This document shows, in pieces, positions 7,179 to 33,060 of a DNA stretch of 64,000 bases. The DNA is from Solirubrobacterales bacterium. GTDB lineage: Bacteria > Actinomycetota > Thermoleophilia > Solirubrobacterales > 70-9. A model generated the notes under the pieces. That model saw nothing but the letters and a program-made list of their open reading frames with translations. It was not told where the DNA came from and made no database searches. The first letter of the stretch is position 1. Each line of letters opens with the position of its first letter. The position numbers and the translations under genes are program-made. The stretch lies in contig OZ241364.1 in assembly GCA_965200635.1 (NCBI GenBank), positions 990,094-1,054,093 of the forward strand, given 5' to 3'.

Positions 7179-7184
7179 GCGAAC

Positions 7185-8418: not shown

Positions 8419-8545
8419 CGCACTTCCCCCAATGGTGAGCTTTGAAGAGAGGACGACCCTATGCGCCCCGAACACCCTCGGAGCGCATTCTCCCGGAGAT
8501 TGGCGGAATTTCCCCCGTCCGCCCGACGCACGGCCCTACCCTGGG

Positions 8546-12071: not shown

Positions 12072-12277
12072 TCTTCGTCAGATTATTCAAGTTTCTGCAA
12101 ATGATGGGCTACGTCCTCTCGGAGCGACCTGATTTCGCTTCAGTCCGTCACCCGCGCACAAGAACGTGACACTTATGGAGAAATTGCATAGATTGGTGAG
12201 GCCAAAAAACACGCACGGGGGACTTTTCATGGCTTGCAGTGAAGAACTAGTTGCGGTGGACGTCCGAGGGGCTTCTG

Positions 12278-12802
12278 ATGTCGCCTGAGTTCGAGGCGAT
12301 TCGGTCGAAGAAAGCGTTCCTCGTTCCTCTGAGCGTCGCCGTCGCGGCTGCGATCAGTGCCTGTGGCGGGGGCACTAAGACCGAGACCGTTCACGAAGCA
12401 GGCACCATCAAGACGGTTAAGGAAGCGGCGCACCCTCACCACCATCACAAGAAGAAGCACCACGGTCCCCCGGCAGCGGAAGAAGCCGAAGCACAGGAAG
12501 CCGAAGAAGAAGCTCAGGTCGAAGCACGGGAAGTGCGTCAAGAAGCGAAGCGGGAAGCACGGGCAGAACAAGCCAAGATCGAAGCCGAACTCCAGGTCGA
12601 AATCCAAGAAGCGGAAGGCGAACTGGAAGCTGCTCCCTACGGCTCGGCGGCACCTTCCGAATCGCATTTCTCCCACGGCTCCCATAGCTCCCACAGCTCG
12701 CATTCCTCCCACGTCTCAAGCTCTGGCGGCGGCGAATATGGGGGCGGGCACTACTCGCACTCCTCCCATTCTTCGCACAGCTCCCACTACTCGTCGAGCT
12801 GA
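12278..12802 (+). CDS. hxsA: His-Xaa-Ser repeat protein HxsA (lipoprotein-type signal, E/A/K-rich linker, 11 HxS repeats)
   Basis: Lipobox AAISAC. HPHHHHKKKHH. C-terminal HFSHGSHSSHSSHSSHVS...HYSHSSHSSHSSHYS (12665-12799). Followed by hxsD/B/C. Confidence 0.75.
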   Translation: MSPEFEAIRSKKAFLVPLSVAVAAAISACGGGTKTETVHEAGTIKTVKEAAHPHHHHKKKHHGPPAAEEAEAQEAEEEAQVEAREVRQEAKREARAEQAKIEAELQVEIQEAEGELEAAPYGSAAPSESHFSHGSHSSHSSHSSHVSSSGGGEYGGGHYSHSSHSSHSSHYSSS

Positions 12803-12803
12803 A

Positions 12804-13130
12804 GTGGGCGCTCAAGAGCAAGTTCCCGGTCGCTCGATCGAGGTCAGCTTCGCCGCCCCGACCACCTCCATCGACGCTATCCAGCGAGCCGCCTATCGGT
12901 TCAGCGATCGTTTCTCATGCGAGCTATTGCCGGGCGAAGCCACGCACGTTTGCGTGCTTCGGTCTCGGGGGGACTCGGATATCGACGCGGAGGTCGAGAG
13001 CTTCCGGGTCGAGGTGCTCGATCAGACGTTGCGGGAGCGCGTCCGCGCTGAGACCGAACCGATAAGGACGATGATCCTGGCCCAGGCGTTCTCGCGAACG
13101 GGCGTCGTAGATCCCCAGGACCTCGACTGA
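12804..13130 (+). CDS. hxsD: His-Xaa-Ser system protein HxsD
   Basis: About 108 aa from a GTG start 1 nt after the hxsA stop. Its position and size match HxsD between hxsA and the radical-SAM pair. Called from context. Confidence 0.6.
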   Translation: MGAQEQVPGRSIEVSFAAPTTSIDAIQRAAYRFSDRFSCELLPGEATHVCVLRSRGDSDIDAEVESFRVEVLDQTLRERVRAETEPIRTMILAQAFSRTGVVDPQDLD

Positions 13131-13131
13131 C

Positions 13132-14586: not shown

Positions 14587-15764
14587 TCAACCTTCGCGGC
14601 CGTGCAAGCGCTTTCGGTTTGCTGCAGCCCCTAGAGCGTGCGGTCTGGATGGTCGTCGATAGCGATCACCTGACGCCGCAGCGGCATGGACGGGCTTACA
14701 AGGTGCGCGCCGGCGAGATCACTCCGCCCGGCTTCGGTCTCTACCTGGTCGACGAGCCGCAATTAGCACCCATCGACGAGTCGTGGATCGCCCTACCCCC
14801 GCTCTTGCAGTACGTCGCCGCCGGAGACGTCATCTCCGCTTCGGCCACCGGGGAGCACGTTCGCGTGCTCTGGCGAGCGGGGAGCCCTAACAACAGCGTC
14901 CTTCTGACCGAGCGTTGCGACCACTACTGCCTGATGTGCTCACAGCCACCGAAGGAACGAGACGACGACTGGCTGCTGGACAACGCTGCAGAGCTCATCC
15001 GCTTGCTTCCGACCTCGACGCCAGGGATTGGCTTCACCGGTGGCGAGCCGACGACCTACGGACAACGGCTCATCGAACTCCTGCGCCTCTGTCGGAACCT
15101 GCTTCCAGACGCCGGCGTGCACGTCCTCTCCAACGGTCGACGTTTCGCAAATTTCGCCTTTGCCAGATCTTGGGCGAGCGTCGACAACCCGAGGATGATG
15201 GTCGGCATCCCTCTCTACGGCGCGGAGCCCGCGCTTCACGACTACGTGGTCCAGTCCGAGGGAGCCTTTGAGGACACGGTCCGCGGAATCGTCAATCTCG
15301 GCGAAGTCGGGCAGCGGATCGAGATTCGCGTCGTCATTCACCAGCAGACGGCTCCAGCTCTGCCGGAGATCGCCGAGTACATCGCCCGCAACCTCCCCTT
15401 CGTCGAGCAAGTCGCGCTTATGGGTCTCGAGATGATGGGCTTCGCCCGCGCCAACGTCAAAGACGTCTGGATAGACCCCGTCGACTACCAAGACGAACTG
15501 CGCGAGGCCGTCTCACTCCTCGCACGCCGACGAGTCAAGACGATGATCTACAACCATCAGCTCTGTCTGCTCCACCGCGAACTATGGCCCTTCGCGGTCC
15601 GCTCGATCTCGGATTGGAAGAACGAGTACCACCCCGAGTGCGAGGCGTGCAGCGTTAGGGAGCGCTGCGGCGGTTTCTTCTTCTCGGCGAAATACCGGCA
15701 CAGCGAGAACATCCAGGCGGTGGCCGCGGAGGCGGGGCGGGCGCCAGCGTTGCTGGAGATCTGA
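14583..15764 (+). CDS. hxsC: His-Xaa-Ser system radical SAM maturase HxsC
   Basis: CDHYCLMCSQ (CxxxCxxC). C-terminal CEACSVRERC. ATGA overlap with the hxsB stop. Confidence 0.82.
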   Translation: MINLRGRASAFGLLQPLERAVWMVVDSDHLTPQRHGRAYKVRAGEITPPGFGLYLVDEPQLAPIDESWIALPPLLQYVAAGDVISASATGEHVRVLWRAGSPNNSVLLTERCDHYCLMCSQPPKERDDDWLLDNAAELIRLLPTSTPGIGFTGGEPTTYGQRLIELLRLCRNLLPDAGVHVLSNGRRFANFAFARSWASVDNPRMMVGIPLYGAEPALHDYVVQSEGAFEDTVRGIVNLGEVGQRIEIRVVIHQQTAPALPEIAEYIARNLPFVEQVALMGLEMMGFARANVKDVWIDPVDYQDELREAVSLLARRRVKTMIYNHQLCLLHRELWPFAVRSISDWKNEYHPECEACSVRERCGGFFFSAKYRHSENIQAVAAEAGRAPALLEI

Positions 15765-15778
15765 GAGGTCGAAGGAAC

Positions 15779-16411
15779 GTGTGGCGGTGGATCGGGGACT
15801 GGTTCGAGATTTGCGTCTCGATCGTCGGAACCGTGCTCGGGGTCGCCGCGGGCGCGGTGGCGATGAACACGGCTCACGCGAATCTCGAAGCGAGCTTCTA
15901 CGACACGATCGCCCAAATTCTTCCTGTGTTCTTGGTCGCACTCGCAGTCGAGCAGAAGCTGATCGACCGCCTGGGCATCGTCGAGGACGAGTACGTGAAG
16001 CGTGCTGATCGCGCCCTCGATCTCGCCATCGCCGCCGAACAGGCCGACAGAGCCGGGGAGTACATCGTTGCCCAGGAGTTTCAGGACAGCTTCGACAGCG
16101 AGCCGCGATTCGGATGGGTCCGTGGATACGTGGATGAGCTGATCTACGGTGACGACGCGAGCGTGCGGGCCGGGGTAGCCGCACAGGCGCGTGATCACTA
16201 CCGTCGAGAGCGTCTGAATGAGGCCCTGTTCGTGGCGATCGCCATCACTGCGCTCATCGTCGGAGAGTGTGCCGCGCTTGGAGGCATGCTACAGGGAGGG
16301 AGTTCACGATGTTCGCTATACCTGGGTCTGGCTATCGGAAGTACGGTCGCCGTGATCGTAGCTTTGACCTTTAGTGGCGCCCGTGAACTGGTGAACTCGC
16401 TGCTTCGGTAA
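15779..16411 (+). CDS. hypothetical membrane protein (about 4 TM), 14 nt after hxsC
   Basis: Hydrophobic segments at both ends. No family recognised. Confidence 0.45.
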   Translation: MWRWIGDWFEICVSIVGTVLGVAAGAVAMNTAHANLEASFYDTIAQILPVFLVALAVEQKLIDRLGIVEDEYVKRADRALDLAIAAEQADRAGEYIVAQEFQDSFDSEPRFGWVRGYVDELIYGDDASVRAGVAAQARDHYRRERLNEALFVAIAITALIVGECAALGGMLQGGSSRCSLYLGLAIGSTVAVIVALTFSGARELVNSLLR

Positions 16412-18408: not shown

Positions 18409-18491
18409 GCTGCTGAGACCTTCGGCTTGAAAGGACGAAGGTCTTCGGCTCTGGGAGCGGGACTGCGGCGGCGATGTGACAGGAATGAGAC
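18409..18491 (+). repeat. tRNA-Glu-like hairpin repeat TLR-A
   Basis: Contains the 17-mer GACCTTCGGCTTGAAAG (18417-18433), identical to 32990-33006 inside the tRNA gene. Perfect 8-bp stem GACCTTCG/CGAAGGTC. Shares GCGGCGGCGATGTGAC...AATGAGAC with TLR-C. Confidence 0.75.
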
Positions 18492-18625: not shown

Positions 18626-19870
18626 ATGGCGATGTCGGCCAACTTCGCCAGACACAGTCGCAAGCCGATCCTGGAAGCACTGGCCGATACCCGCGTCGTC
18701 TACGTGATGGGCGCCAGGCAGGTGGGCAAGAGCACCCTGACGGGAGAGATCGCGACGAGCGAGCACCTAGCTGACGTGCTCAGCCTTGATAACCGAGCGG
18801 CGAGGGATGCGGCGAGCAGCGACCCCGAGGGATTCGTGGCCGGCCTCTCGCGCCCGGTCCTGCTCGACGAGGTCCAGCGAGCCGGCCCCGATCTGCTGCT
18901 CGCGATCAAGGGGGCCGTCGACGCCGACCAGACGCCGGGCCAGTTTCTGCTGACGGGCTCGGCCAACGTCCTCACCAACCGCAAAGTCCAGGACGCGCTC
19001 ACCGGACGGATCGAGATCATCACCCTGTGGCCGCTGTCCCAGAGCGAGATCGAGGGATCGGCCGGCAATATCGTCGACTCTCTCTTCTCCGCGGCGCCGC
19101 CTCAGATCAGCGATGCCCCGGTCGGCCGCGGGGCCTTCGTCGATCGAATCGCGGCCGGTGGATACCCCGAGGCGCTGAAGCGCAACGGGTCACGCCGGGC
19201 CAACTGGTTCGAGAACTATCTGAAGACGACGCTCGACCGCGACCTGCGCGACATCAGCGATGCGCAGAAATTGGGCGAGATGCCGCGGCTGCTAAAGCTG
19301 CTGGCGGGCCGTGCCGCGAGCCTCCTGAACTCCTCGGAGGTGGGCAAGCGACTGCAGCTGGAGCATAAGACCGTCCGCAGCTATACGACCCTCTTGGAGA
19401 CCGTCTTCCTGGTCAAGACCCTCCCCGCCTGGAGGCCGTCGATCGGAGCCCGCGAGTCGACGACGCGCAAGGTCTACATCGTCGACAGCGGCCTCCTTGC
19501 CCATTTGCTCGGAGCCGACCCGAAACGCCTCGCCGAGGACGAGCGCGTCACCGGAATGGCGCTCGAGAACTTCGTCGCGATGGAGGTGATGAAGCACCTC
19601 GAATGGGCGAGCACCGACGCAAGGCTTTTCCACTACCGAACCGGCAACGACGAGATCGACCTCGTCCTCGAGGATCGCTCAGGAGCGATCGCCTGCCTTG
19701 AGGTCAAGGCGGCGGCGACGGTCCGGGAACGAGACTGGAAGCCGATGGCGAAGATCCGGGATGCTCGCAGCGAGGACTTCCGCGCCGGGTTCCTGATTCA
19801 TGCCGGCGCCCAGACCGTCCCGCTCGGCGATCGACTCTGGGCGGTTCCGATCAGCGCTCTATGGACATAG
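18626..19870 (+). CDS. AAA+ ATPase of the AAA_14/DUF4143 type
   Basis: Walker A VMGARQVGKSTL. Overall pattern of the widespread 'ATP-binding protein, DUF4143' family. Confidence 0.78.
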   Translation: MAMSANFARHSRKPILEALADTRVVYVMGARQVGKSTLTGEIATSEHLADVLSLDNRAARDAASSDPEGFVAGLSRPVLLDEVQRAGPDLLLAIKGAVDADQTPGQFLLTGSANVLTNRKVQDALTGRIEIITLWPLSQSEIEGSAGNIVDSLFSAAPPQISDAPVGRGAFVDRIAAGGYPEALKRNGSRRANWFENYLKTTLDRDLRDISDAQKLGEMPRLLKLLAGRAASLLNSSEVGKRLQLEHKTVRSYTTLLETVFLVKTLPAWRPSIGARESTTRKVYIVDSGLLAHLLGADPKRLAEDERVTGMALENFVAMEVMKHLEWASTDARLFHYRTGNDEIDLVLEDRSGAIACLEVKAAATVRERDWKPMAKIRDARSEDFRAGFLIHAGAQTVPLGDRLWAVPISALWT

Positions 19871-19890: not shown

Positions 19891-19973
19891 AAGCCAATCT
19901 CCATCGGATTGAAGGGACGAAGGGCGTTGGCTAAGGGAAGTGGGATCGCAGCGGCGAGTGACCCCAATAAGAC
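19891..19973 (+). repeat. tRNA-Glu-like hairpin repeat TLR-B
   Basis: AGCCAATCTCCATCGGATTGAAGGGACGAAGGGCGTTGGCT...GCAGCGGCGAGTGAC...AATAAGAC. Aligns with TLR-A, -C and -D. Confidence 0.7.
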
Positions 19974-20579: not shown

Positions 20580-20661
20580 AGCCAATCTCCGTCGGATTGA
20601 AAGGACGAAGGGCTTTGGCTTGAGAAGCTGAGATCCGGCGGCGATGTGACCTAAATGAGAC
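20580..20661 (+). repeat. tRNA-Glu-like hairpin repeat TLR-C
   Basis: AGCCAATCTCCGTCGGATTGAAAGGACGAAGGGCTTTGGCT...CCGGCGGCGATGTGACCTAAATGAGAC. Confidence 0.72.
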
Positions 20662-20903: not shown

Positions 20904-23834
20904 CTAGGGCGAGGAGTCGACTATCGGATCGTCCGCGCGGGCCGGGTCGCGGGCGACGAAACGCACCAAGGCTCCGTCAGGCGACCCGGTAGAGGTGGGA
21001 GCTACGAAGACGAGGGCGAAGATCACCTCGTGCGCGTCGAGGTCGGCGGTGACGGTGTCGTCGCCGGTCTCGACCATCGGGTAGAGCAGGACCGCTCCGC
21101 GGAGCGGTTTGTGAAGCTGCGCCGCGAGCTCGTCGTCGTGGTTGCCGACGCCGGCGATCTGGCCCGCGATCGGTCGGTGCTTGGGATCACTGATCGCGCC
21201 GAAAAGGCCGCCGCGGCCTTTTCGGCGGCGACGGCGGAAAACACTGAGGGTGCCGTGGCCGACGACCTCGGCGCGGGGGCCGGGGCCGACGTGCTGGGGC
21301 AGCATCACCACCCAGTCCTCGATCTGGTCGCTGCCGAGGCCCTCCAGCCAGGTCAGATCGGCGGCGAAGTGATCGTCGGGCCGCCAGCGCAGGTCTTTCA
21401 AGACCGCGAGCAGCTCCTGATGGTCGACGGTGCCGTACCGACAAGTCAAGAGGCTCCTCGCTGACGAGCCCTCCAGCTTGAAGGCTCCGTCCTTCGCCGC
21501 GGCTTTCACAAGCGGTGCGACCGCGGTCGTGTTGTGGGCGATGTCCGCAGGATCTTCCGGGTAACCGGTCGGCTCCAAGCGCTCCCCCGGGGAGCGGCGC
21601 TCCACCAGCTGTGCGTTGTACATCTTCCCGGCCGACGAGGGCTTCAGCCAGCCGAGATGCTGGGAAACGAGTGGCGGGATGTCCCGAGGAGTGATCATCG
21701 GCACCCCGTTTTTCAGCTCGCCGTAGCGCCGAATCTCCCCGCGGAACAGCTCCTCCGAACGACACGCTGCCTCGAATGCCTCGTAGAGGTCAAAGGCGCG
21801 GCCGTGACCGCCGCGATCGATGTAGAGGCGGACCAGGTCCTCGTAGCCGCTACGGAAACCGAACCAGCGACCCATCTGCATCAGGGTGTCGGCCTGTTTC
21901 GTCACTCGGCGGTAGTAGGAAACCGTCAGCCCCTCTACGGTGAACCCGCGCGAGAGCTTGGCGCCGCCGAGCAGGACCCGCCAGACCGGTCGGCTGTCGA
22001 AGTCGACCTCTTCCCGTGCCGCTTCTCTGTCCCCGTTCACAATCAGAACCGGGTCGTTGTCGGGACCCTCGATCCGGGACACCACCTCGCCGACGTACCC
22101 CTGGACGCTCTCGTAATCGGCCGGGACCGCCGCGCCGTCGCTGCGGGCCTCCATCACAGCCGCGACGTCGGAGTGAAACAGGTCGCGCAGCCGGGCATGG
22201 CCGGTGGACCCCCAGTATCCGGATCCCTTCCACGTCTCCCGCACCGCTTCGGCGAGCTGGAGGTGGTCCACCTGTTTGACCGACTCGTGGATCAGCATCG
22301 TGTGGTGTTTGAAGCGGCGCTCTTCGTTCACTTCCCGGTAGAGCTTGATCGCGCCGGTGAGGATGAACATGTCGAGCGCCTGCTGCATCACGCCCTCCAG
22401 GTCTTCCTCGTCGATCTCGCGGACGTAGGCGAGGCGCTTCGAGTTGGTAACGGTCCGCACCTCGTCCTCGGGCAGGATGTCGAGATCGTGGAACTCGACC
22501 GCGCCCATGTATCCCGGCGGCCGGTCTAGCGAGAGGATGAAACTTTTCGGGAAGAGGTCGGCGGAGTCATCGGGGTCGACGAAGACGTTGGCGAACGGCG
22601 TCGCGGTGTAGCCGACGTACTGTCCTCGCGGCAGTTTCTCGAGCAGTTCGGAGATCAGGCCGTTGATTGCCGTCCGCTTCGTCTGGCCGGCTTCCCAGTT
22701 TTTCGGGTTGGAGGTGTTCAACGAGGCCTGGTCGGACTCGTCGTCGATGATCAGCGCCGGGATGTCGCCGAGCTTCGCGGTGATCCGGTTCAGGTCCTTG
22801 ACCAACCGCGTCAGGACGCTCTTGTTCTTCTTGACGACGACGATCCGGGTCGGCACCCGGTGCAGGTTCTCCGGGGCGTTGAGTGGCTTGTCGGGATGGA
22901 GGCGCTCGAAATCGAGGGAGGAGATCCCCTGCGCCAGGCTGGCGTAGTCGCCCGCTTTGGTGGTCAGCCGGTAGATATCGGCGAATCCAAGCTCCGAGGG
23001 CAGGCCGCCGTGGCTGACGAACTCCGCGCGATCGGGATCCCCGGCGTAGTCGACGCTGCGGACCGCGTCGGGATCGTCCCGGTCGATCCCACGCATCAGG
23101 TTCTCGTCGCCGACCAGCTCCTTGTCGATTCGTCTCTGCGTCTGCCGGCGGAGCAGGTCGGTCTGCCCAGTGAGGACGATTATCAGGCGGTAGCCGGCGT
23201 CGATCGCCTTGGCGATGACACCGGTGAAGTTGGCGGTCTTCCCACTCTGGACGTAGCCGACTACCAGCCCTTTGGCCTGGTAGGCCTCTCTGCGCTCGGG
23301 GTCGCTCAAGCGCTCGACGATCCGGGTCGTGTTGAGATCAAGCGCGGCGACCGAGGTCTCATTTTCCCACTCCCTGGCGAGGTATTCGGCGTAGTGCTTC
23401 CAGTAGAAGGGCTCGCGTTCGCCCATTACCCGGCCGTACCAGGGCTCGAAGACGTCGCTGACGACCACCGACCTGTCCTCGGCCCGCGGAACGGCCTTAT
23501 CGAGGCACCCGATCAGCTCCTCGCCGAGCCCGAGCCGCTCGTAGACGAGGGCGCGGCGCTCGCCGGTTCCGGGCTTCGTCTGTCCGACCCATTCCGCCAT
23601 CGGCTCCGCGTCCCAGCCCGCGAGGGTCAGGCGAAACCTGGTCAAGAGCCGCTCCGCCGGTTCGGCCGCGACCAGGTGGGCGGCCAGGACCGAGGGCGCG
23701 GCCAACTCCGGCACATCCATCTCGTCCGCCTCGAACTCGGCCCGCCGAGCGAGGTCCGAGGGACCGCGCGTCGCCATCCCGTCGAGAGCGGATGCGTAGA
23801 TCCTGTACAGGGCCTCCGCGTTCTCAGCTGCCAA
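20904..23834 (-). CDS. Z1-domain SF2 helicase-like ATPase
   Basis: P-loop GYVQSGKTANFTG, Walker B/DExx LIIDDESDQAS. Size and order are typical of Z1 proteins that follow GHKL and PD-(D/E)XK genes. Confidence 0.8.
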   Translation of the reverse strand: MAAENAEALYRIYASALDGMATRGPSDLARRAEFEADEMDVPELAAPSVLAAHLVAAEPAERLLTRFRLTLAGWDAEPMAEWVGQTKPGTGERRALVYERLGLGEELIGCLDKAVPRAEDRSVVVSDVFEPWYGRVMGEREPFYWKHYAEYLAREWENETSVAALDLNTTRIVERLSDPERREAYQAKGLVVGYVQSGKTANFTGVIAKAIDAGYRLIIVLTGQTDLLRRQTQRRIDKELVGDENLMRGIDRDDPDAVRSVDYAGDPDRAEFVSHGGLPSELGFADIYRLTTKAGDYASLAQGISSLDFERLHPDKPLNAPENLHRVPTRIVVVKKNKSVLTRLVKDLNRITAKLGDIPALIIDDESDQASLNTSNPKNWEAGQTKRTAINGLISELLEKLPRGQYVGYTATPFANVFVDPDDSADLFPKSFILSLDRPPGYMGAVEFHDLDILPEDEVRTVTNSKRLAYVREIDEEDLEGVMQQALDMFILTGAIKLYREVNEERRFKHHTMLIHESVKQVDHLQLAEAVRETWKGSGYWGSTGHARLRDLFHSDVAAVMEARSDGAAVPADYESVQGYVGEVVSRIEGPDNDPVLIVNGDREAAREEVDFDSRPVWRVLLGGAKLSRGFTVEGLTVSYYRRVTKQADTLMQMGRWFGFRSGYEDLVRLYIDRGGHGRAFDLYEAFEAACRSEELFRGEIRRYGELKNGVPMITPRDIPPLVSQHLGWLKPSSAGKMYNAQLVERRSPGERLEPTGYPEDPADIAHNTTAVAPLVKAAAKDGAFKLEGSSARSLLTCRYGTVDHQELLAVLKDLRWRPDDHFAADLTWLEGLGSDQIEDWVVMLPQHVGPGPRAEVVGHGTLSVFRRRRRKGRGGLFGAISDPKHRPIAGQIAGVGNHDDELAAQLHKPLRGAVLLYPMVETGDDTVTADLDAHEVIFALVFVAPTSTGSPDGALVRFVARDPARADDPIVDSSP

Positions 23835-24819
23835 TGCCCGCTCCCATCAGGTCGAGTGCGGCGACGAGCTCGGGGGGCGGGCCGGAGCTCGCCGCAAAGC
23901 TCGAGACGTCGATGTCGTAGTCGACCTCACGGATCTTCGAGGTGTCGACCGGCAGACCGGTGAGCAGCGACGGGGTGATCCGGGGGAAGTCGTTCTCGAC
24001 CCGGAGCGGAAGCGGAACGGTCCGCAGCCGCCAACGATCTTTGTAGAGGTCGCGCTGGGTCTCGTTCCAGCGGACGCCGGCCAAGTTCGCAAGCACGCGC
24101 TCGTGCCCCTCCGGGCCCGCCTGGTCGAGAACGTCGTCGACCAGCTCCGACAAGGTCCGGCCCTGGTCGTCCCCACCTCGCGTTATCTGGACCGAGAGCA
24201 GCCAGAGCGCGCCTCCCGCGGTCGGCAGAAGCTGGCCGAGGCCGTGGATCCGATGCACGCGGTGCTCTCCCGCCGTCGTCTTCACCTCGACGTCAATCTC
24301 CCCGAAGCCGAAGTCATGCTCCTCCCGCAGGCCGCCCCGCCAGGCCTCCGGGCCGGCGGCTCCCGAGGCCAGAAGTGCCTCGGTCAGCAGGAGCTCTCCA
24401 AAGAGGCCGACCTCGGCTTCGACCCCGAGACGCGCTCGGGCAGAGAGGATCGATTCCCAGAGGTCCAGGGTCTCTTCGAAGGCCGCCAGCGGCCCGGCGC
24501 CGTCGAGCTGGATTCGGTCAGCGATCATCATCAGCATCGAGTAGCCGTCCGCGACCAGCTCCTCCCCCATGGTCGCGATCTCAAGGTAGCGTCGGCCGCC
24601 ATCGAAGACAGCGGCGGCGGTCACGTTCGCCAGCCGGTTCGGAGGGATCACCGCGATCTCGTCCATCGGGGCGCGGAGGGTGAGGCGGCCGGCCGGCTTA
24701 TCGATCAGCAGCCTCAGCTCGGGCTCTCCCCCGAGGCGGATCAGGACCGGCACTCCGGTCTCCCAATGTTCCTTCAAGGCCGGAAGCGAGAGACGCCTCT
24801 CGTCGCCGGTGACACTCAT
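23824..24819 (-). CDS. PD-(D/E)XK-motif nuclease-fold protein
   Basis: EHDFGFGEIDVEVKTT (D...E.K). ATGA overlap with the upstream GHKL gene and an 11-nt overlap with Z1. Confidence 0.7.
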   Translation of the reverse strand: MSVTGDERRLSLPALKEHWETGVPVLIRLGGEPELRLLIDKPAGRLTLRAPMDEIAVIPPNRLANVTAAAVFDGGRRYLEIATMGEELVADGYSMLMMIADRIQLDGAGPLAAFEETLDLWESILSARARLGVEAEVGLFGELLLTEALLASGAAGPEAWRGGLREEHDFGFGEIDVEVKTTAGEHRVHRIHGLGQLLPTAGGALWLLSVQITRGGDDQGRTLSELVDDVLDQAGPEGHERVLANLAGVRWNETQRDLYKDRWRLRTVPLPLRVENDFPRITPSLLTGLPVDTSKIREVDYDIDVSSFAASSGPPPELVAALDLMGAGIGS

Positions 24820-26333
24820 CCCAGCTCCTCTCGTGCCGCAGCGGTCAGGACCGCTTGCCAGATCTCGACGTTGTCCTTGTCCCGGGGACCCATGTTCTGT
24901 CCCGAGAAGAGCTCCTCCATCAGGAGGAACATCAGCGTCTTCACCACCGGCGAGTCATTTAGCGCCCCACGCCGTCCGCCCGCGATCGCCTTTCGGTAGC
25001 AGCTGTTCAGCCAAAGGACGTTGAGCTCGCGGTCGACTTCGAAGAACTCATCCCCCTCGAGCTCCTGCCACCTGATGTCAACCGGCTCGTCATCCCTGAT
25101 CGGGAGCTCGCGCTCAAAAGCCCGACGCACGCGCGGCGAAAATCCGGCGCCCGGCGGCATCACAGGCGAACGCCTCCGGGTTCGTCGGTTCGACGCCTTG
25201 AGCACACCGTGTGCCTCCTCGGTGTATTCCCGGAAGCCCGGCCCATCAGAGGTTTCGGCGGACCAGACGGCCCGGCTGAACTCGGCGCCGACCTCGATCC
25301 CGTTCTTCTCCGGCTTCAGGCTGACCATCCGCTCGAGGTCGCCGTCGATGTCGACCGCGACCCGCGCGAGGCTGAGCTGTTTGTCGGCGGGCACGAGGCC
25401 GTTCCATCCCCCAAGCTGAACCAGCCTGTCGTTGTAGTAAACGTAGATGCCCTGTCGCCTGATCTGATCGCTGTCGAGGCGGAAGGCATCGAGGCTGGAC
25501 CTGCCGGGCCAGATGTGACACGCAAGGTCGAGCGATGCTCGGGTGCCGGTCGCGGTCAGGGTTTTCGGCCATCCCGGGGCGCCGCTGTGCGGATAGCCGA
25601 ACGGGTCCAGCGGCTTGACCTCGACCCCCGGCAGGACCTCTTCATTGTCCACGATGTCGATCCGCACCGACATCTGCTCCGCCTCCAGGATCCGGTGGAA
25701 GACGAGGCCGATGTGGGTCCTGACCTTCGCGATCACGTCCTGAAGGAATCGCTCGACCGCGTCCTCGTCGTCGACGGCCGGAAAGCCATTGACGTCGTCC
25801 CAGCGGATCACGGTGCCGGTGCGCAGGTCCTTGATCCCCCAGTCGAGTCCCAGCGTGTCACCGGCGAAGTCCGGGGCGACGATCTGACACTCGTAGTCAC
25901 TCTTCGCCTTGTCGCTGATCCAGACCCTGCCGGTCGGCTCACCGTTCTTGCTGACCGAGATCACGGTAACGCTGCGCGCTTGGCTGAAGGAGGCCGCCTT
26001 CAACCCGAGGCCGAAGCGACCTATTTCGCCCTGCCCATAGGTCCGGTCGCCGCCGACGGTCATCGCGACGTTGATCTGCTCATCGTCCATACCGATGCCG
26101 TCGTCGACGACGAAGAGCCGACGGAGCCGGCCCGACTCCTTAACGAAGCGGATCAAGACCTCGGTCGCTTCAGCGTCAATCGAGTTGTCGACCAGCTCGG
26201 CGATGGCCGCCTCGAGGGTATGGTTCCGACCCAGCGCCTCAAGCGAGCGGGGCTCGGGGGTCAGCCGGACCGAGCCGGAGACCGGGATCGAATCGTTTGG
26301 TTCCAAGGTGCTTTCCATCGCTAGTCTCGTCAT
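24816..26333 (-). CDS. GHKL (HATPase_c_3 / MORC-like) ATPase
   Basis: N-box AELVDNSIDA, G1 box VVDDGIGMD. Start placed at MTRLAMES (26333), because the 125 upstream codons of the tracked ORF are Arg/Ser-rich and not protein-like. Confidence 0.82.
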   Translation of the reverse strand: MTRLAMESTLEPNDSIPVSGSVRLTPEPRSLEALGRNHTLEAAIAELVDNSIDAEATEVLIRFVKESGRLRRLFVVDDGIGMDDEQINVAMTVGGDRTYGQGEIGRFGLGLKAASFSQARSVTVISVSKNGEPTGRVWISDKAKSDYECQIVAPDFAGDTLGLDWGIKDLRTGTVIRWDDVNGFPAVDDEDAVERFLQDVIAKVRTHIGLVFHRILEAEQMSVRIDIVDNEEVLPGVEVKPLDPFGYPHSGAPGWPKTLTATGTRASLDLACHIWPGRSSLDAFRLDSDQIRRQGIYVYYNDRLVQLGGWNGLVPADKQLSLARVAVDIDGDLERMVSLKPEKNGIEVGAEFSRAVWSAETSDGPGFREYTEEAHGVLKASNRRTRRRSPVMPPGAGFSPRVRRAFERELPIRDDEPVDIRWQELEGDEFFEVDRELNVLWLNSCYRKAIAGGRRGALNDSPVVKTLMFLLMEELFSGQNMGPRDKDNVEIWQAVLTAAAREELG

Positions 26334-26599
26334 GGTATTGCGACGGTCGCCTGCCGCGTTTCGCCAACGCCCGCCTAACGAAGTCCTCCCGTCGTCGGGA
26401 CCGGTCCTGCCGGAGGTGGGGATGGCAGACGGTGGTGAGTCCGCTCTCATCGAGCTGTCTTCCCTCGCAGGCAGACACACCCGCGGGGATCTCCTCGTAG
26501 ACCTCGAGGTTGAAGGGCGCGCAACCGCGCAGAGTGGACCGCGGCAGTCCGATACGACGACCCTAAGGGAGGACTGGCCGCCGCTCTGCAGGCTCTTGG

Positions 26600-26683
26600 C
26601 GTGCTCGGGCGCCATACGTCTTGAGGACGAGGGGCGTTGGCTTTGAGGAGCCGCTTTGCGCCGGCGTGTAGCTGTGATGAGAC
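26600..26683 (+). repeat. tRNA-Glu-like hairpin repeat TLR-D (most diverged)
   Basis: CGTCTTGAGGACGAGGGGCGTTGGCTTTGAGGAGCCGC...GCCGGCGTGTAGCTGTGATGAGACC aligns with TLR-A and TLR-C. Lies in the 485-bp MTase/GHKL spacer. Confidence 0.55.
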
Positions 26684-26818
26684 CGGAACGGAAGCCCACC
26701 ACGCTCACCTTAAGCCGAACTTCACCTCATCAGGCGGAGACTTTGCCCGCCTACCGCAAGACACTACGAGGCGTCCCCCGGTCCGGCTGACGACGACCGA
26801 GTGAACAAGTCAATCTCT

Positions 26819-28372
26819 TTACTTTCTAGCTACCACGAGTGCCTCACGCGCACTTCCCCCCTTGACGTTCTTTGGGCGGAGATCCCGCGCAGATACGACT
26901 TCAACGTCGGAAAAGCCGATCTCGATTGCGAAGTGAGCCAGCAGAACATCGGTTAACACGGGTAGCCGCCACAACTCTTGCCAACCAGATTCTGCCTCTC
27001 CCTTTTCTCGCCTGGAGAAGGTTGAGTTGGCGACAACGCAGACCAAAAGACCCCCCGCACGAAGCAAACGGAATTGTTCCTGAAACACCTTGAACATGTC
27101 TTCAAAGTACTGGCGGACAACAACCCCATCAGCCTTCCGCCGAGCTTCCGTCGTCAGCCAATCTTCCAATCCCTCGGCTAGGTCGGTGGCACGGCTTCCA
27201 CCCTTTGGAAAATGGGCCGTTTGCGAGAACCGCACGGACGGATGACTTCTCAAGGTCCCTCTGCGAGTTGATCGGAAAGACTCCGCCGAAACGACATGCT
27301 CCATCAGCCATAGCTCCAGCTTGTAAATCTCGCTGTAGTCGATGCAATTTAGGTATGGCGGCGAGAAGAGCGATAGATCTGCCCAACCTTCCGGGAATGC
27401 AAGTTCTCCGGAGCCCAGCTCCAGCGCTCCGAGGTCTCGTGCATCTCCCGCGACGTGAAGCGCAGAGGTTTGGGCCGCCTTCCCTCGCTGGTCAGCGACC
27501 TCTTCAAGGTCAGCGATCATGGCCGACCACTGACTCGCCAAAGCATCTTTAACGGGACCCCTTGGCGATCCCTGCCCAAGCGAGCCCGCCAAAGAATTGG
27601 CACGGCGAGTTCGGCTTCTCTTGATGCGCAAAGCCCGACCATCCTTCATCGTCCCCGAAAGATCCTCGATCACTGCCGCAAGTCCGAGGAGGAAGAAGTC
27701 GATCTCAAGCTGTGACGCGCCGGGCAGCGCTCGGAGGTGGTCGCGGGCAGCTATGAGAGCTCTGAGGCGCGGGCGGGAGAACACCTCCGGCCGCGAGAGA
27801 GTCGAAAGCTCTGGAATCACGACCGTCTGCTGATGGTCATAGGCAAGAGCAGGCTCCAGGAGCGCTCTTAGTCTCAGCGTGTCTAACTGAGGCCAATTGA
27901 GCTTCGTTGCGCCGACAAAGTGTGCAAACGGCGAATACTCGACACTTCTAACCTCGCTCACTAAGTCATGTTCCATCCCAGCTAGTGCCGTGGTCCCGAC
28001 GCCGCCGAAGACGTCGGCCACTCGCAAGTTATCCGAGAGCGAAAACTCGGCGATCACGGCACTCAGCAAAGTTGGCGAAAAGCCCTCCTTGTAGGTAAAC
28101 CAACGATGGATCGGAGTGGACCGTAGATCCTCCGACCCGACCAGAGAGCCGAATACGTGCCGTCTGTCCCGGATGCGCAACTCGGACTCAAGCTCCGAAC
28201 TCGCCTTCCGCAACCTATGCCAGCGAAGCAAATCGACTTTGCCATCCGGTCTGCTCCACCCGTCGTCAGTCCTTGCCAGCATTGGCTCGACAGCGACTCC
28301 ATGATGACGGCCCTCATCGTCCCACGCAGACTCGGAAAATGGTCCCCCTCTCTCTTGCTCGACCTCGCTCAT
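26819..28372 (-). CDS. DNA amino-methyltransferase (N6-A or N4-C), alpha-type motif order
   Basis: Motif I VADVFGGVGTTA is about 225 aa upstream of motif IV FSPPYLNCIDY. One of the most AT-rich-looking coding stretches in the window. Confidence 0.82.
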   Translation of the reverse strand: MSEVEQERGGPFSESAWDDEGRHHGVAVEPMLARTDDGWSRPDGKVDLLRWHRLRKASSELESELRIRDRRHVFGSLVGSEDLRSTPIHRWFTYKEGFSPTLLSAVIAEFSLSDNLRVADVFGGVGTTALAGMEHDLVSEVRSVEYSPFAHFVGATKLNWPQLDTLRLRALLEPALAYDHQQTVVIPELSTLSRPEVFSRPRLRALIAARDHLRALPGASQLEIDFFLLGLAAVIEDLSGTMKDGRALRIKRSRTRRANSLAGSLGQGSPRGPVKDALASQWSAMIADLEEVADQRGKAAQTSALHVAGDARDLGALELGSGELAFPEGWADLSLFSPPYLNCIDYSEIYKLELWLMEHVVSAESFRSTRRGTLRSHPSVRFSQTAHFPKGGSRATDLAEGLEDWLTTEARRKADGVVVRQYFEDMFKVFQEQFRLLRAGGLLVCVVANSTFSRREKGEAESGWQELWRLPVLTDVLLAHFAIEIGFSDVEVVSARDLRPKNVKGGSAREALVVARK

Positions 28373-28555
28373 AGGTTCAGAGCCGGAGGCGCATGCCTAG
28401 CGCGCCCCGCGAGGTCATCCCGATATCGCATCGAGGGCTCTCGGAGCCTGAGAGATCGACGACGAAGATAGCCTCCCACAGCGAGGCAGCACCCTCCGGA
28501 TCGCCGGGATCTTTCACGCAGGGGAGGCGTCGCGTGGCTCGGACTAACAGCATGG

Positions 28556-29623
28556 CTAGCCAGCGAGAAGCTTCGGCTCAAGCCAGAATCGGCGGGGCTC
28601 ACGGAAATCCGAACGCTCGGCCTCATAGTCGGGGTTGTATTCGATCTCCGCGTCGCGGAACGCAACGGCGTCGTCGTCCGAGATCTCAGCGGGCACCGCT
28701 TTGACGTTGGCTCGGCGGGCGTCGTAGACGACCAAGTAGCCCTCAGTCTCAAGATCTGGCGTTCGCTGCTTGTTCTCCTCCAGATAATCGGCGAGCTGCT
28801 TTGCGCCCGCTCTCGGACGAGCCGGAGCGCCATACGAGGTCGCAAGCTCGGTGCCATCAGTGCTAACGCTCTGTCCAAGCCACTTGATCTCGATCAGCGA
28901 GAGCTGGGCGGAAAGACTCCATTTGACCTTGATATCGATGGGCTGGGTCTCGCTGACGTTCTGCTCCTCTCTGACTTCTGCGTGATCGCGAAGGGTAGTT
29001 TCGAGGTGCTGAGCCAAGGACCCGCGCATGATCTTCTCCGGTTTGTTGACCAGAAAAACATGGCGACTGTCATGCCATGCTTGGCGCAGGAGGTGACAGG
29101 TCGACCAGCGAGCCTGCTCCCGTTCGTAATAGTCGAGCGCTTTGGCGAGTGCAAAAAAGGTCGGAGGGGCGATCGCACTTGGATGACCATTGGGGTTTCG
29201 GACCGTTTGGAAGGTGCCTTCGATCAGAAAGAACTCGCCACTCTCGCGCCAGAGATAGACGACTGCACTTTCGTCGAAACCCTTGAGAGTCGCTTTTTCC
29301 GGCACCCCGGGCCAGGCCCACAAGGTGCCGTTGGGCATCACCTGGACAACACCACCTCCGCCGACAACCTCAGCAAGAGCCTCGGCGTTGGTCTCAATCC
29401 CCTCATCTTCCCAATCGAGCGGATCTCCATCGACAGTCGCCAGGACGGTGAGGCCGCCGCCGAACTCCTCAGCTGACCGATGCCGATAAATACGCCGAAC
29501 GGCGATTAAGAGCTCCTTGAGCCGATCGGCCCCGGCGCTACCGTGTTGGCGGACGATGCGGGGCGTGAAGATTTCCTCGATAATTTGCCGCATCTCGTCA
29601 GGATCGAACTTCGGCTCGCTCAC
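28556..29623 (-). CDS. predicted PD-(D/E)XK nuclease-fold effector of the ABC-3C-like triad
   Basis: E..TQPIDIKVKW-x9-SLIEIKWL (D...E.K). GTGA overlap with the preceding gene. Confidence 0.55.
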   Translation of the reverse strand: MSEPKFDPDEMRQIIEEIFTPRIVRQHGSAGADRLKELLIAVRRIYRHRSAEEFGGGLTVLATVDGDPLDWEDEGIETNAEALAEVVGGGGVVQVMPNGTLWAWPGVPEKATLKGFDESAVVYLWRESGEFFLIEGTFQTVRNPNGHPSAIAPPTFFALAKALDYYEREQARWSTCHLLRQAWHDSRHVFLVNKPEKIMRGSLAQHLETTLRDHAEVREEQNVSETQPIDIKVKWSLSAQLSLIEIKWLGQSVSTDGTELATSYGAPARPRAGAKQLADYLEENKQRTPDLETEGYLVVYDARRANVKAVPAEISDDDAVAFRDAEIEYNPDYEAERSDFREPRRFWLEPKLLAG

Positions 29624-30228
29624 ACCACCTCCGCCTCCTCGGGCAGACGACGGGCCAGATAGGTGAGCCAGACCACAGCAGGAACCATCAAGTCGTCTGC
29701 TGCGTCATCACCCGCGAGCGCCTCATTGAGCGCGTCAAATTGGCTCTCCAACAGTGCGAGACCAGCCTCATCGAGAAGTTCCTGGGTCCTTACGAAGCGC
29801 AGCGCCCGCCGAAGGCCCGGCTCTCGACCGAGCGCTCCGGCAAGCGACGGGAGCGGCATTGCAAGGGCGGCGCCGGCGGCGGCGTCGAGGTAGGGAAGCC
29901 GACGAGCGTTGAGCTGCATCTCGCTGATTTGGCCAAGGTCAGCGCGACCGAGATCGGTGATCGTCCAAACCTCCTCGCCACGCTCAATCAAGCCGCTGTT
30001 GCGGGCGCGGTTCTGAGCCTTCGAGAGGTAGTAGGAAAAAGGCGCACCGGTCCGGGTAGCCGTGAATTTGTAGCCCCACCACTCCGGCCGGCGGCCGTCA
30101 AAAACAGCAAGCAGGCAAGCGAGATAGGCGAGAGTCTGAAGCTCGCCGTCGGTCATTCCCGCTGAGGCCTCCGTCTGCATCGCCGCGATCTGGAGAAGGT
30201 CAAATTCGGCGAGCGCCTGCTCGCTCAC
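29620..30228 (-). CDS. small helical protein in the 'middle component' position of an ABC-3C-like triad
   Basis: 202 aa with no catalytic motif. GTGA overlaps on both sides tie it to the ATPase and the nuclease genes. Confidence 0.45.
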   Translation of the reverse strand: MSEQALAEFDLLQIAAMQTEASAGMTDGELQTLAYLACLLAVFDGRRPEWWGYKFTATRTGAPFSYYLSKAQNRARNSGLIERGEEVWTITDLGRADLGQISEMQLNARRLPYLDAAAGAALAMPLPSLAGALGREPGLRRALRFVRTQELLDEAGLALLESQFDALNEALAGDDAADDLMVPAVVWLTYLARRLPEEAEVV

Positions 30229-32192
30229 TGGGCGGCCCCGAGTTTCTGCTCGATCGCCGCGTACGCCCTCTCGAAGAGCTCCTCGTGTCCTTGCTGAACC
30301 TCGGTCAGATAGGTCCAGCTGGTCATCCTCACCAGCTTCATCCGTTTGTCGCCGCAGCGCTCGGCTAGGCGAAGCAGTAGCTCGGAGGTGTTGATGTTTG
30401 CGGTCATGAGCAGCTGACCGCCACCTTCGACGAAGCTCGCGAACATCTCCCCTGCCTGATTCTCGTAGGCGATGTCGAGCGAGCCCTCGGGGGTGTCCAC
30501 GTAGAGGAACGCACCTCCCGATGCCGCCCCTAGCCTCTCTGCCAGTGCCATACGAAGCGCGATGTCAAGAAAGAACCGTTGGCTCTCAGAGAGCTCGTCG
30601 GGAGATCGGCGATCGGATTGCGCGAGAACCAGACGCAGGCGCAGTTTCGAAGAATGGATCTCCAGATCTATTTCCAGCTCAATCCCAAGAAAGAGATGGG
30701 CCAGCTCTTGAAAGCGAGGGACAAATTCATCCTCAACCGCCGCATAGGCCTCCATCAACTCCGCGTGGAGCACCGAGACGGCGGCTTTTGCCTCTTCGCG
30801 ACGCTCGCGCTCGCGGGCTTTGCGCTCCATCAGTTGGGCAATCTGGTTGCGAAGGCCGGCGGTCGCGCTATCCACTCCGAAGTCTTCGACCGAGCGACGA
30901 GCCAGAGCTAGTGAATTTGCCTTCTTGAAGCCGTCGAGCTGGGCCGTTGACTCGCGAAGAGCGCGGTCGGCGTCATCCGCTTCGGTACGCAGTCGCGACA
31001 CTGCGCCCTGCTGGACCTCAAGATCGCCCTCAAGGGCCACAATCCTCTCCGAGCTCTCGGCTATCTCGGCAATCAGTGCCGCATCCTCATCGGCGCTCTC
31101 GGCGGGGAGGTCAGACCCGCACAGAGGACAGAAGCCCTCTTTGAGGCGACCGGCGACCTCGGAAGCTACCTCGGGGCCGTTCGCACCGCAGATTCCACAG
31201 GACCCGCGGTCCACTGCGTCCACGACTATTGGGTGTGAATGCGTATGACGTCGCGTTTTGAGTCGGTCGGCGAAGAGTCGGTCATAACGCGCCTGCTCAG
31301 CACGCATCTTGGCGCCGGAGTCGGCCAGTCGGACTTGAGCGTCGCGCCAGTCCGTTTCGAGCCTCTCGAAATGGTCTGCACAGTCTTCGAGACGTTCCTC
31401 CAGTCGTTTGTGCTCATGCTGCAGGTCTTGGTCTCCAGCATCTTTCCCGCTGATTGCCCGTTCGAGCGCCTCTAGTTCGCGACGCACGCCAGTGGCCTGC
31501 CACTGGAGGTTTCGGACCAGCGAGTCAGCCGAGTCGATCCTTTTCTGCTGGCGCTCCAGCTGGCTCGTCTGATCGGCGGAGATTCCAAAAGCCAGATAGA
31601 GGGCGGTTTCCGCAACCCGCTCGTCCCAGAACAGCAGACGGCGCTCCTCGTCGAACGTAAGTACCAGCAGCTGCAGAAAGACCAGCTGGGAGAAATCGTC
31701 AAGACCGGTGTCAGCCAGGACGGCTTTTTCGTAGGCGCGGTGGCGCTGCGCATCATCAAAGGCAGAGTCGTCGTAGGTCGTTACTTGGCCGTCCGGCTCC
31801 GTGATTTCGAGCTCTCGCAAGCCCTGAGTCGCAAACATGCCGCGCACGATGCGATAGGCGCGCTCCCCAATTGTCATCTCTAACGCGACTTGGGCGGCGC
31901 CGTGGTCCTCCGAACTGATCCGTCCGGAGAAGTAGGTGGAGGAATAAGAAAGGAGGTCTTCGTAGTAGCTGCCGTACCGAACAAAGTTTTTCTCTGCCTC
32001 GGCCACGACACCGCAGATACCGAAGTTGATCGCCGAGAGAAAGGTTGACTTCCCGAGCCCGTTAGCTCCTGCGAGACAGAAGACGGGCTTGTCGAAGTCG
32101 GCCTCTACCCGTTTGGTTCGGGCGTAGAGAGAGAACTGTTCGAGCACAACGCGGGTTGGCTTGGGCATCCGTAGTCCGGTCGTTCCGCTCAC
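30225..32192 (-). CDS. Rad50/SMC-like ABC ATPase with coiled-coil insert carrying a CxxC-x19-CxxC zinc ribbon
   Basis: Walker A GANGLGKST, signature LSESQRF, Walker B/D-loop FLYVDTPEGSLD. CGICG...CPLCG sits inside a heptad-rich middle region. The start may be the Met at 32168. Confidence 0.82.
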   Translation of the reverse strand: MSGTTGLRMPKPTRVVLEQFSLYARTKRVEADFDKPVFCLAGANGLGKSTFLSAINFGICGVVAEAEKNFVRYGSYYEDLLSYSSTYFSGRISSEDHGAAQVALEMTIGERAYRIVRGMFATQGLRELEITEPDGQVTTYDDSAFDDAQRHRAYEKAVLADTGLDDFSQLVFLQLLVLTFDEERRLLFWDERVAETALYLAFGISADQTSQLERQQKRIDSADSLVRNLQWQATGVRRELEALERAISGKDAGDQDLQHEHKRLEERLEDCADHFERLETDWRDAQVRLADSGAKMRAEQARYDRLFADRLKTRRHTHSHPIVVDAVDRGSCGICGANGPEVASEVAGRLKEGFCPLCGSDLPAESADEDAALIAEIAESSERIVALEGDLEVQQGAVSRLRTEADDADRALRESTAQLDGFKKANSLALARRSVEDFGVDSATAGLRNQIAQLMERKARERERREEAKAAVSVLHAELMEAYAAVEDEFVPRFQELAHLFLGIELEIDLEIHSSKLRLRLVLAQSDRRSPDELSESQRFFLDIALRMALAERLGAASGGAFLYVDTPEGSLDIAYENQAGEMFASFVEGGGQLLMTANINTSELLLRLAERCGDKRMKLVRMTSWTYLTEVQQGHEELFERAYAAIEQKLGAAQ

Positions 32193-32369: not shown

Positions 32370-32945
32370 CTAGCCGATCTCCTGCCGTACGACCTTGTAG
32401 CCGCCGCCCATCGCATGGACGTAGCGAGCGAGCATCGTCTCGACCCGATGCCCCGCTATTTCGGCAAGATCGGCATCGTTGACGCCGGCGGCGCGTAGGT
32501 GGGTGACGTACGAGTGGCGGCACTCATGAGGGCGAATATCGAGACCGGAGGCTTGCTGGGCCGGACCCCAGACATCCCGATAGAAGTTTCGCTCGCGCCA
32601 CATCCGACTTCACGGAGTCGTGAAAATGAACTCGCAGGTTGGGCCATTGAGGTTGATTTCTGCTTCGAGCATCCAGGCGAGGGTCGCGGGAACCGGGACG
32701 ACGCGGCCGGCGCCCTCCTCGCCGTGGTCCGTCTTGGTGCCCTCCAGGATCGTCCCCTCGTGGGCCGATCGGTGAGCTGGCGAAGCTCTCCGAGAAGGTC
32801 GGATAGAAGCGACCGTAGGTCTCAGAAAAAGCGACGAGGATGAGACGGAGACTCTCCGGAACGGACCGGAACCGAGTGGACTCCACCGGAACGCATCGGC
32901 GACCCGCAACCGAAGACTTGGCTCTGCACCGGACAATCCCGGCAC
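32370..32945 (-). pseudogene. tyrosine recombinase (phage-type integrase) remnant, N-terminally truncated and frameshifted
   Basis: The C-terminal catalytic region RPHECRHSYVTHL...MLARYVH (32370-32603) is in one frame. The box-I-like GTKTDHGEEGAGRVVPVPATL is in another frame (32610-32945). Only about 20 nt separate it from the tRNA 3' end. Confidence 0.72.
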
Positions 32946-32964: not shown

Positions 32965-33060
32965 TGCGCCCGACCAGATTCGAACTGGCGACCTTCGGCT
33001 TGAAAGACCGACGCTCTTTGGGCCCCCGGAGGGACCCGTTGACCGCTGAGCTACGGGCGC
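32965..33060 (-). tRNA. tRNA-Glu(UUC) with an insertion of about 24 nt in the D-loop (96 nt; functional status uncertain)
   Basis: Manual cloverleaf: acceptor GCGCCCG/CGGGCGC, D-stem GCTC/GAGC, anticodon arm TCGGT-CTTTCAA-GCCGA, variable loop AGGTC, T-arm GCCAG-TTCGAAT-CTGGT. The D-loop is 31 nt and includes the hairpin GGGTCCCTCCGGGGGCCC. No encoded CCA. Confidence 0.65.

Follow-up and report, generated by a model that had tools for sequence, protein, structure and literature searches.

The window analysed here is a stretch of 64,000 nucleotides (nt) with ~70% GC from a Solirubrobacterales bacterium (contig OZ241364.1, positions 990,094 to 1,054,093). At positions 20904-32192 it carries seven intact genes on the minus strand, described below as two modules. 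Module 1 (26819-32192) consists of an ABC ATPase (30225-32192, 655 amino acids (aa), AAA_23/SMC_N), a middle protein (29620-30228, 202 aa, of a family without a library match), a candidate PD-(D/E)XK nuclease (28556-29623, 355 aa, N-terminal domain unassigned), and an amino-methyltransferase (MTase; 26819-28372, 517 aa, PADLOC MTase_II). The first three are called the triad. Module 2 (20904-26333) is a trio composed of a MutL/MORC-type GHKL ATPase that resembles MzaB (24816-26333, 505 aa), a DUF4420 PD-(D/E)XK protein that resembles MzaD (23824-24819, 331 aa), and a Z1-domain SF2 helicase-like protein that resembles MzaC (20904-23834, 976 aa). A first-pass annotation had described seven co-oriented genes with one MTase, two PD-(D/E)XK proteins, and ABC, GHKL and SF2 NTPases, and had asked whether they form one composite system or two systems that share a modification gene. 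Its gene coordinates and domain calls agree with the present analysis, the fold matches of the 355-aa protein being weak.

In a filter based on the GC content of the codon positions, the seven minus-strand open reading frames are the sole coding-like ones in 20904-32192, and no gene of the opposite strand lies between them, as had been claimed. A GTG-started frame would extend the GHKL gene to 26708, but the extension has the composition of non-coding DNA (GC at third positions, GC3, of 0.70 vs 0.71 at second positions). GHKL homologues are 493-500 aa long, and the nucleotide similarity of two other trio loci to the window ends at 26285-26288, at the start of this gene. For these reasons a start near 26333 and the previously annotated 485-nt spacer between the MTase and GHKL genes are considered real. 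As annotated, the spacer between the MTase and the triad has 183 nt. A database copy of the MTase (487 aa) begins at M31; should this be the true start, at 28282, the spacer would have 273 nt. The GC3 value is 0.63 for the MTase, 0.69-0.72 for the triad and 0.81-0.86 for the trio, while the genes of the host show 0.90-0.95.

The motifs of the ABC ATPase are intact, with Walker A at residues 42-49, the signature LSESQ at 534 and Walker B (DTPE) at 566-569, and a profile search of the PDB matched SMC/Rad50 heads. The best PADLOC match is LmuB (PDLC03859, E=5.6e-18; residues 26-578 against positions 13-556 of the 611 in the profile). The PbeC and DndD models of the same library match only the N-terminus (residues 14-83), and mad3 only the C-terminus, weakly (E=3.8e-9). 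Midway along the coiled coil there are four cysteines, C332-x2-C335 and C355-x2-C358 (CGIC...CPLC, with the spacing CxxC...(19)...CxxC; window 31128-31220), which are invariant among homologues from Solirubrobacterales to Pseudomonas, and also in the distant ABC ATPases of loci L002 and L008 (loci fetched for comparison are cited by L number). Judged from the sequence, these residues are consistent with a zinc hook, of a pattern unlike that of the published CxC clade.

Two of the four proteins of module 1, those of 202 and 355 aa, are invisible to Pfam, NCBIfam and PADLOC. For the middle protein, sequence and profile searches gave nothing significant in these libraries or in the PDB. Relatives, 11 searched against NCBIfam and 43 against Pfam, showed no match to an LmuC, LmuA or ABC-3C family; one of the 43 gave an RHH_3 match at E=0.075, which is not significant. 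The middle-protein family comprises 344 clusters at 50% identity, all of ~200 aa, and its gene is always located between the ABC and nuclease genes. Its identity follows that of the ABC protein (r=0.95); covariation is tight among all three triad proteins and looser between them and the MTase (r=0.6-0.8). The single-sequence AlphaFold2 prediction of the 202-aa protein reached a predicted local distance difference test score (pLDDT) of 40, and the model of the 355-aa protein 93. The latter protein contains an invariant P228-x-D230...E245-x-K247 motif. Foldseek found no match to its model at E<0.001, and the best of the weak matches are the PD-(D/E)XK proteins SfsA, Nt.BspD6I and Hjc. The search for the nuclease yielded 103 clusters, all labelled 'hypothetical', from several phyla (among others Chitinophaga, Pedobacter, Spirillospora, Enterobacter and Pseudomonas aeruginosa); the family was not found in the PLSDB plasmid or GenBank phage collections.

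The MTase is without a Pfam match, with some of its relatives carrying PF01555, and is recognized by PADLOC as MTase_II (2.6e-33) and weakly as mad2 (E=0.0032). The sole match in a profile search of the PDB is a weak one to 2ZIE (E=7e-4). Motif I (DVFGGVG, at 120) and motif IV (SPPY, at 337) are separated by ~200 aa and both are invariant in 21 relatives. The predicted product is N4-methylcytosine or N6-methyladenine; among amino-MTases, SPPY as motif IV is found more typically in N4-cytosine than in N6-adenine enzymes.

The partners of this enzyme were examined in 38 loci gathered with the MTase as the only query (11 genomic and 27 metagenomic) and screened for the seven window proteins. The triad of the window type (34-63% identity) neighbours the MTase in 18 of them (16 non-redundant), a kinase/receiver module in 6, that module together with an ABC triad in 2 (L008 and L036), and a distant ABC triad only in 3; in the remaining 9 the flanks are too short to judge. 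The GHKL/DUF4420/Z1 trio was found in none of the 38. The triad either precedes the MTase in the same orientation, which is the arrangement of the window, or is divergent beside it, and in every triad locus with readable flanks the MTase adjoins the triad. When the search was seeded with the nuclease instead, the four genes were found together in all seven readable contexts (two contigs of P. aeruginosa, Enterobacter asburiae, Pedobacter and three IMG/VR contigs), with the MTase as either the first or the last gene. The cassette thus occurs in three phyla (Actinomycetota, Pseudomonadota and Bacteroidota), in two gene orders, and both co-oriented and divergent. In the tree of the MTase, the window enzyme groups with those of L012 and L019, which belong to co-oriented ABC-middle-nuclease-MTase cassettes. 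Because the triad accompanies the MTase, or the nuclease the whole cassette, in 18/38 and 7/7 loci and the trio in 0/38, the MTase is assigned to module 1, which apparently is a conserved, so far undescribed restriction-modification (RM)-like cassette of four genes.

Further observations were made on the distribution of this cassette. The three IMG/VR contigs with a complete copy (L052-L054) are classed as viral, so that the cassette may travel on prophages or phage-like elements. The Enterobacter copy was not found in complete E. coli genomes. The distant ABC triads that adjoin the same MTase lineage (L002 11452-15165 and L008 14827-18456; 23-25% identity of the ABC protein) keep the architecture of ~660, 210 and 350-370 aa. 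In hhalign comparisons with the families of the middle protein and of the nuclease, the L002 triad shows a weak profile likeness (P=2e-4 and 9e-5, respectively), and that of the L008 triad is not significant (P=0.043 and 0.0067).

The alternative kinase/receiver module consists of a kinase-like protein of 630-710 aa, a receiver-domain protein of ~166 aa and an unassigned protein of ~178 aa, for which one weak PIN match was obtained in L007. The kinase-like protein has an N-terminal HATPase_c_3 domain and a C-terminal HATPase_c domain of the histidine-kinase type. The module is located at L001 6671-9685, L007 6701-9754, L008 11319-14479, L009 11480-14481 and in L036, and its beginnings are seen in L020-L022; in L008 and L036 it is placed between the MTase and the ABC triad. 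Partners of the triad and kinase types are interleaved in the MTase tree. Three related Solirubrobacterales genomes (L001, L013 and L011) share the same flanking gene families (F10-F11-F3-F12 and F13-F16), and beside the MTase the first has the kinase/receiver module, the second the ABC triad, and the third only decayed nuclease and MTase fragments. This looks like the replacement of restriction modules in place, with decay, next to a constant MTase.

In module 2, the GHKL protein matches HATPase_c_3 (E=6e-25), with the N, G1 and G2 boxes present, and PADLOC MzaB (1e-27). The DUF4420 protein (DUF4420, 1e-31) shows a D169...E-V-K motif and a match to MzaD (2e-9), and the Z1 protein (Z1, 2e-51) has the helicase motifs GxGKT and DESD and a match to MzaC (7e-64). 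The NCBIfam scores are far below the equivalog cut-offs (130.7 vs 850 bits for MzaB, 265.5 vs 1500 for MzaC and 61.5 vs 420 for MzaD), and the three are therefore homologues and not equivalogs. PADLOC recognized neither MzaA nor MzaE in the seven genes or in nine neighbouring genes of the island in which they lie. Compared with locus L039, which is 95% identical, the ratio of non-synonymous to synonymous substitution rates is 0.06 for Z1 and 0.20 for DUF4420. Such strong purifying selection argues that the trio is not a decaying remnant.

The neighbourhood of the trio in other genomes is different from that in the window. Among its relatives with 42-75% protein identity, a C5 methylase (PF00145) lies 0-3 kb away in 7/7 contexts (five metagenomic or genomic and two plasmids), and Vsr is present in 5/7. 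In two trio loci Vsr overlaps or abuts the Z1 gene, and a co-oriented block of five genes in Arthrobacter p2MP includes the trio and begins with the C5 methylase. A locus with a Z1 protein 98% identical to that of the window holds two C5 methylases 8 kb away. Earlier work has also described Z1 and DUF4420 as neighbours of Dcm-like methylases (PMC5379612). In the 64-kb window, a tblastn search with six trio-linked Dcm and Vsr proteins gave nothing below E=0.29, and no C5 MTase or Vsr is detectable there. The best reading of module 2, from its genes and their neighbours, is that of a Mza-like trio which moves independently and is here without its usual C5 methylase and Vsr. In the Arthrobacter p2MP locus (L049), the C5 methylase and the trio are separated by a protein of 1096 aa (5444-8734), which matches PADLOC TmtA models over its first 400 residues (E=3e-47) and is maybe an extra component in some trio systems.

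The non-coding junction between the modules (26334-26818) shows no likeness to any fetched locus and contains no remnant of a gene or module; a decayed alternative module at this place was considered and rejected, as no trace of it was found. Its folds are no more stable than those of shuffled sequences. A scan for promoter and terminator consensus sequences returned no promoters and two terminator-like sites, both within genes, and is uninformative in this DNA of high GC content. Within the junction, at 26625-26642, lies the tRNA-like repeat TLR-D, which the first-pass annotation had pointed out. Taken alone, this repeat is not significantly similar to the neighbouring tRNA gene, and a direct copying from that gene was rejected, but it is a real member of a family of four copies with the 18-nt core AGCCAAMGCCCYTCGTCC, for which 0.02 copies are expected in the window. 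All four (18433-18450, 19915-19932, 20603-20620 and 26625-26642) are on the minus strand and lie between blocks of cargo; three lie downstream of module 2, on both sides of a PDC-S01 gene. The longer copies are similar to the anticodon arm of the neighbouring tRNA, with the hairpin kept and the T-arm missing. Lacking the T-arm, the repeats are not simple duplications of an att site at the 3' end. Equivalent repeats and a 3' fragment of the tRNA occur in L039 (7360-7414 and 8420-8476).

The tRNA gene itself, similar to tRNA-Glu(UUC), is located on the minus strand at 32965-33060 and has 96 nt, with ~20 extra bases in the region of the D-loop. It is reported by ARAGORN as 'tRNA-???', and the Rfam tRNA model (36.6 bits) covers only 68 nt of it (32965-33032). 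Integration events may have left it chimeric or damaged. Between this gene and module 1 lies the C-terminal fragment of an integrase (32370-32603, minus strand, 77 aa; Phage_integrase, 7e-9, profile positions 112-168 of 172). A lower-GC island extends from ~11.1 to 32.6 kb, host-like GC3 values resume at 33180, and the tRNA gene marks the boundary of the island and is the presumed target of integration. The order from this end is tRNA, integrase fragment, module 1, repeat, module 2, two repeats, PDC-S01 and a last repeat. As far as the sequence can tell, such an order agrees with successive insertions next to the tRNA, module 1 being the closest to it and the least host-like.

Taken together, the seven genes are probably two autonomous defence modules, made neighbours through serial insertion beside a tRNA gene, and not one system. 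The earlier suggestion that two independently acquired modules were joined here is upheld by the step in GC3, the repeat in the spacer, the end of nucleotide similarity at the start of the GHKL gene and the different partners of the modules elsewhere. The proposal of one composite system, or of an MTase serving both nucleases, is disfavoured by the comparative loci, in which the MTase is linked to one module only and the trio is found without this MTase in 7/7 contexts. Both modules look functional, with intact motifs in each and purifying selection on DUF4420 and Z1. In module 1, the SPPY amino-MTase would mark the host DNA at a recognition motif, the ABC ATPase and the 202-aa middle protein would together make up an ATP-driven machine for holding or scanning DNA, and this machine would license the 355-aa PD-(D/E)XK nuclease to cut DNA without the mark. 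The trio presumably relies on a C5 methylase encoded beyond the window, or can do without a dedicated one.

Several points weigh against this explanation. The link of the trio with C5 methylases was seen in 7 contexts of more than 7,800 relatives of the Z1 protein, and in several of them the type II nucleases NaeI, NgoMIV and Bse634I could be the true partners of the methylases. The L039 contig ends at the start of DUF4420, and its visible part excludes the GHKL gene and the region upstream. The histories within module 1 are partly discordant, the window MTase being nearest to L012 and L019 and the window triad to L003-L005. The MTase lineage also pairs with the kinase/receiver module, with an ABC triad present as well in two loci, so that one MTase beside two NTPase modules recurs in this lineage; and the kinase/receiver module opens with a GHKL protein just downstream of the MTase, where the trio stands in the window. 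These last features, the alternative partners and the GHKL protein with HATPase_c_3 directly after the MTase, speak for two systems that share the enzyme: the trio, its C5 methylase lost, would read the mark of the SPPY MTase, and one MTase would restrain both nucleases. That this MTase is the only one found in the window, that the seven genes are co-oriented, and that purifying selection acts on an intact trio point the same way. The arrangement is nevertheless contradicted by the absence of the trio from the 38 MTase loci, by the C5 methylase of an unrelated family in all seven trio contexts and the pair of them near the 98%-identical Z1 protein, by a spacer of 485 nt where 23-128 nt separate the MTase from its genuine downstream partners, and by the step in composition and the repeat scar at that spacer. 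We regard the sharing as unlikely, with a small share of probability left to a trio that uses the SPPY MTase because the configuration of one MTase beside two NTPase modules recurs in the lineage.

It is also quite unlikely that the trio needs no cognate methylase at all and is modification-independent or modification-dependent (type IV-like), in which case the adjacency of C5 methylase and Vsr elsewhere, and of the SPPY MTase here, would be incidental. In several contexts the nearby C5 methylases do have type II partners of their own (NaeI, NgoMIV, Bse634I, or REase_II-like), the C5 methylases next to the trios matched no MzaA model among their top PADLOC families, and cloned mzaABCDE restricts T4 carrying cytosine (C), hydroxymethylcytosine (hmC) or glucosylated hydroxymethylcytosine (ghmC), to differing degrees (bioRxiv 10.1101/2022.06.16.496414). 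A C5 methylase in 7/7 contexts is, however, a high frequency even for defence islands, and the overlap or abutment of Vsr with Z1 in two loci, together with the C5 methylase at the head of the p2MP block, speaks against an incidental adjacency. A single pathway of seven genes, comparable with BREX, DISARM and MADS, appears very improbable. The set of seven was found in 0/51 related loci, whereas each half occurs alone many times; the halves differ in composition, and there is no match to mad6-mad8. What favours such a pathway is that the genes are contiguous and co-oriented, that the MTase and the C-terminus of the ABC ATPase weakly match mad2 and mad3, and that systems with several NTPases and one MTase exist, for example MADS (bioRxiv 10.1101/2023.03.30.534895). 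Serial insertion at a tRNA gene, which is at the core of the explanation by two autonomous modules, can yield operon-like arrays that imitate composite systems.

A wider proposal, which we consider possible but hold only tentatively, is that the MTase, the zinc-hook ABC ATPase, the middle protein and the nuclease form a widespread, undescribed class of ATP-dependent RM systems, in which the methyl mark would be read by a Rad50/SMC-like machine and not by a helicase or translocase. The MTase lineage would then be a hub that exchanges modules (the ABC triad, an Ambrosia-like module, or both), the trio being maybe adopted in the present locus. If true, the cassette, which recurs in the three phyla named above and on the contigs classed as viral, would link the SMC-like ABC ATPases of Lamassu and DndD, whose presumed role is the sensing of DNA ends or structure, to the discrimination of self and non-self by a methyl mark, and would offer a testable case of a single MTase lineage that swaps its restriction partners in place.

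The rest of the island carries other cargo. The PDC-S01 gene (18626-19870, plus strand), a single-gene defence candidate of PADLOC, codes for an AAA_14/DUF4143 ATPase (E=3e-153) and is found downstream of the trio also in the 95%-identical L039 (4277-6602). An HNH_2 nuclease (11115-12071) is followed by two adjacent radical-SAM genes (13132-14586 and 14571-15764) with weak matches to prokaryotic-viperin models; these three and two small unassigned genes (11115-16411 as a whole) could be another defence or modification unit. A DUF6159 gene is also present. The best relatives of every gene examined come from metagenome-assembled genomes of Solirubrobacterales and from soil metagenomes.

The earlier view that the layout corresponds to no named system is correct in part. 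The trio is Mza-like and the best match of the ABC ATPase is LmuB, but the scores of the trio are not those of Mza equivalogs, and membership in MADS was rejected. MADS is an eight-gene system in which MAD6, MAD7 and MAD8 are mandatory (bioRxiv 10.1101/2023.03.30.534895); only the weak mad2 and mad3 matches were obtained here. Mza is defined as five genes (PMC11551731), and mzaABCDE is an experimentally validated anti-phage system in which the MzaD nuclease cuts DNA (bioRxiv 10.1101/2022.06.16.496414). Module 2 has homologues of MzaB (GHKL), MzaC (Z1) and MzaD (DUF4420), but far below the equivalog cut-offs and in the order B-D-C instead of B-C-D. MzaA and MzaE were not found in the searched genes of the window, and the C5 methylase that marks the seven related trio contexts is lacking, as is Vsr, which is present in five of them.

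Module 1 follows the three-gene plan of Lamassu and ABC-3C, in which a coiled-coil ABC ATPase is combined with a small middle protein and a nuclease effector, and its ABC ATPase is of the LmuB type by the near full-length PADLOC match. The label 'ABC-3C-like' used earlier is therefore apt for the architecture and not for the 202-aa and 355-aa proteins, which match no ABC-3C, Lamassu or other family model; in their case only the middle position in the operon agrees. Other differences are the intact Walker B glutamate of the window ABC ATPase, the order ABC-middle-effector, and the MTase that is always attached to module 1. The gene order of DdmABC is the reverse of ABC-middle-effector. No MTase is reported in a review of Lamassu (PMC10586767).

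The DndD/CxC-DndE systems, including PbeABCD, resemble module 1 in the coiled-coil ABC ATPase, which in them has an apical zinc hook and in module 1 a zinc-hook-like motif, in the nuclease and sometimes in the presence of methylases, since some of them carry C5 or N4 cytosine methylases instead of phosphorothioation (PMC10853773). They have, however, an obligate DndE partner with two RHH domains, and an HKD nuclease fused to an SF2 helicase (PMC10853773). In module 1 the 202-aa protein has no DndE or RHH match in Pfam, the nuclease is a stand-alone PD-(D/E)XK protein of 355 aa without a helicase, and the putative hook is CxxC...CxxC rather than CxC. Since defining features of both groups are missing, module 1 is set apart from Lamassu/ABC-3C as well as from DndD/CxC-DndE.

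The alternative kinase/receiver partner of the MTase lineage, which is not in the window, resembles Ambrosia in its architecture only, that is, in the combination of an MTase, a histidine-kinase-like protein, a receiver protein and a small fourth protein. Ambrosia of P. aeruginosa, recently validated and RM-like, consists of an N6 MTase, a sensor kinase, a REC-wHTH protein and an HNH nuclease (bioRxiv 10.1101/2025.09.30.679545). The kinase of the MTase-linked module differs by an extra N-terminal HATPase_c_3 (MORC-like) domain, and the fourth protein is without an HNH match. With orthodox type II RM systems, finally, module 1 shares an amino-MTase with motifs I and IV, but the orthodox nuclease works singly and needs no NTPase, and that of module 1 always occurs together with an ABC ATPase and a middle protein.

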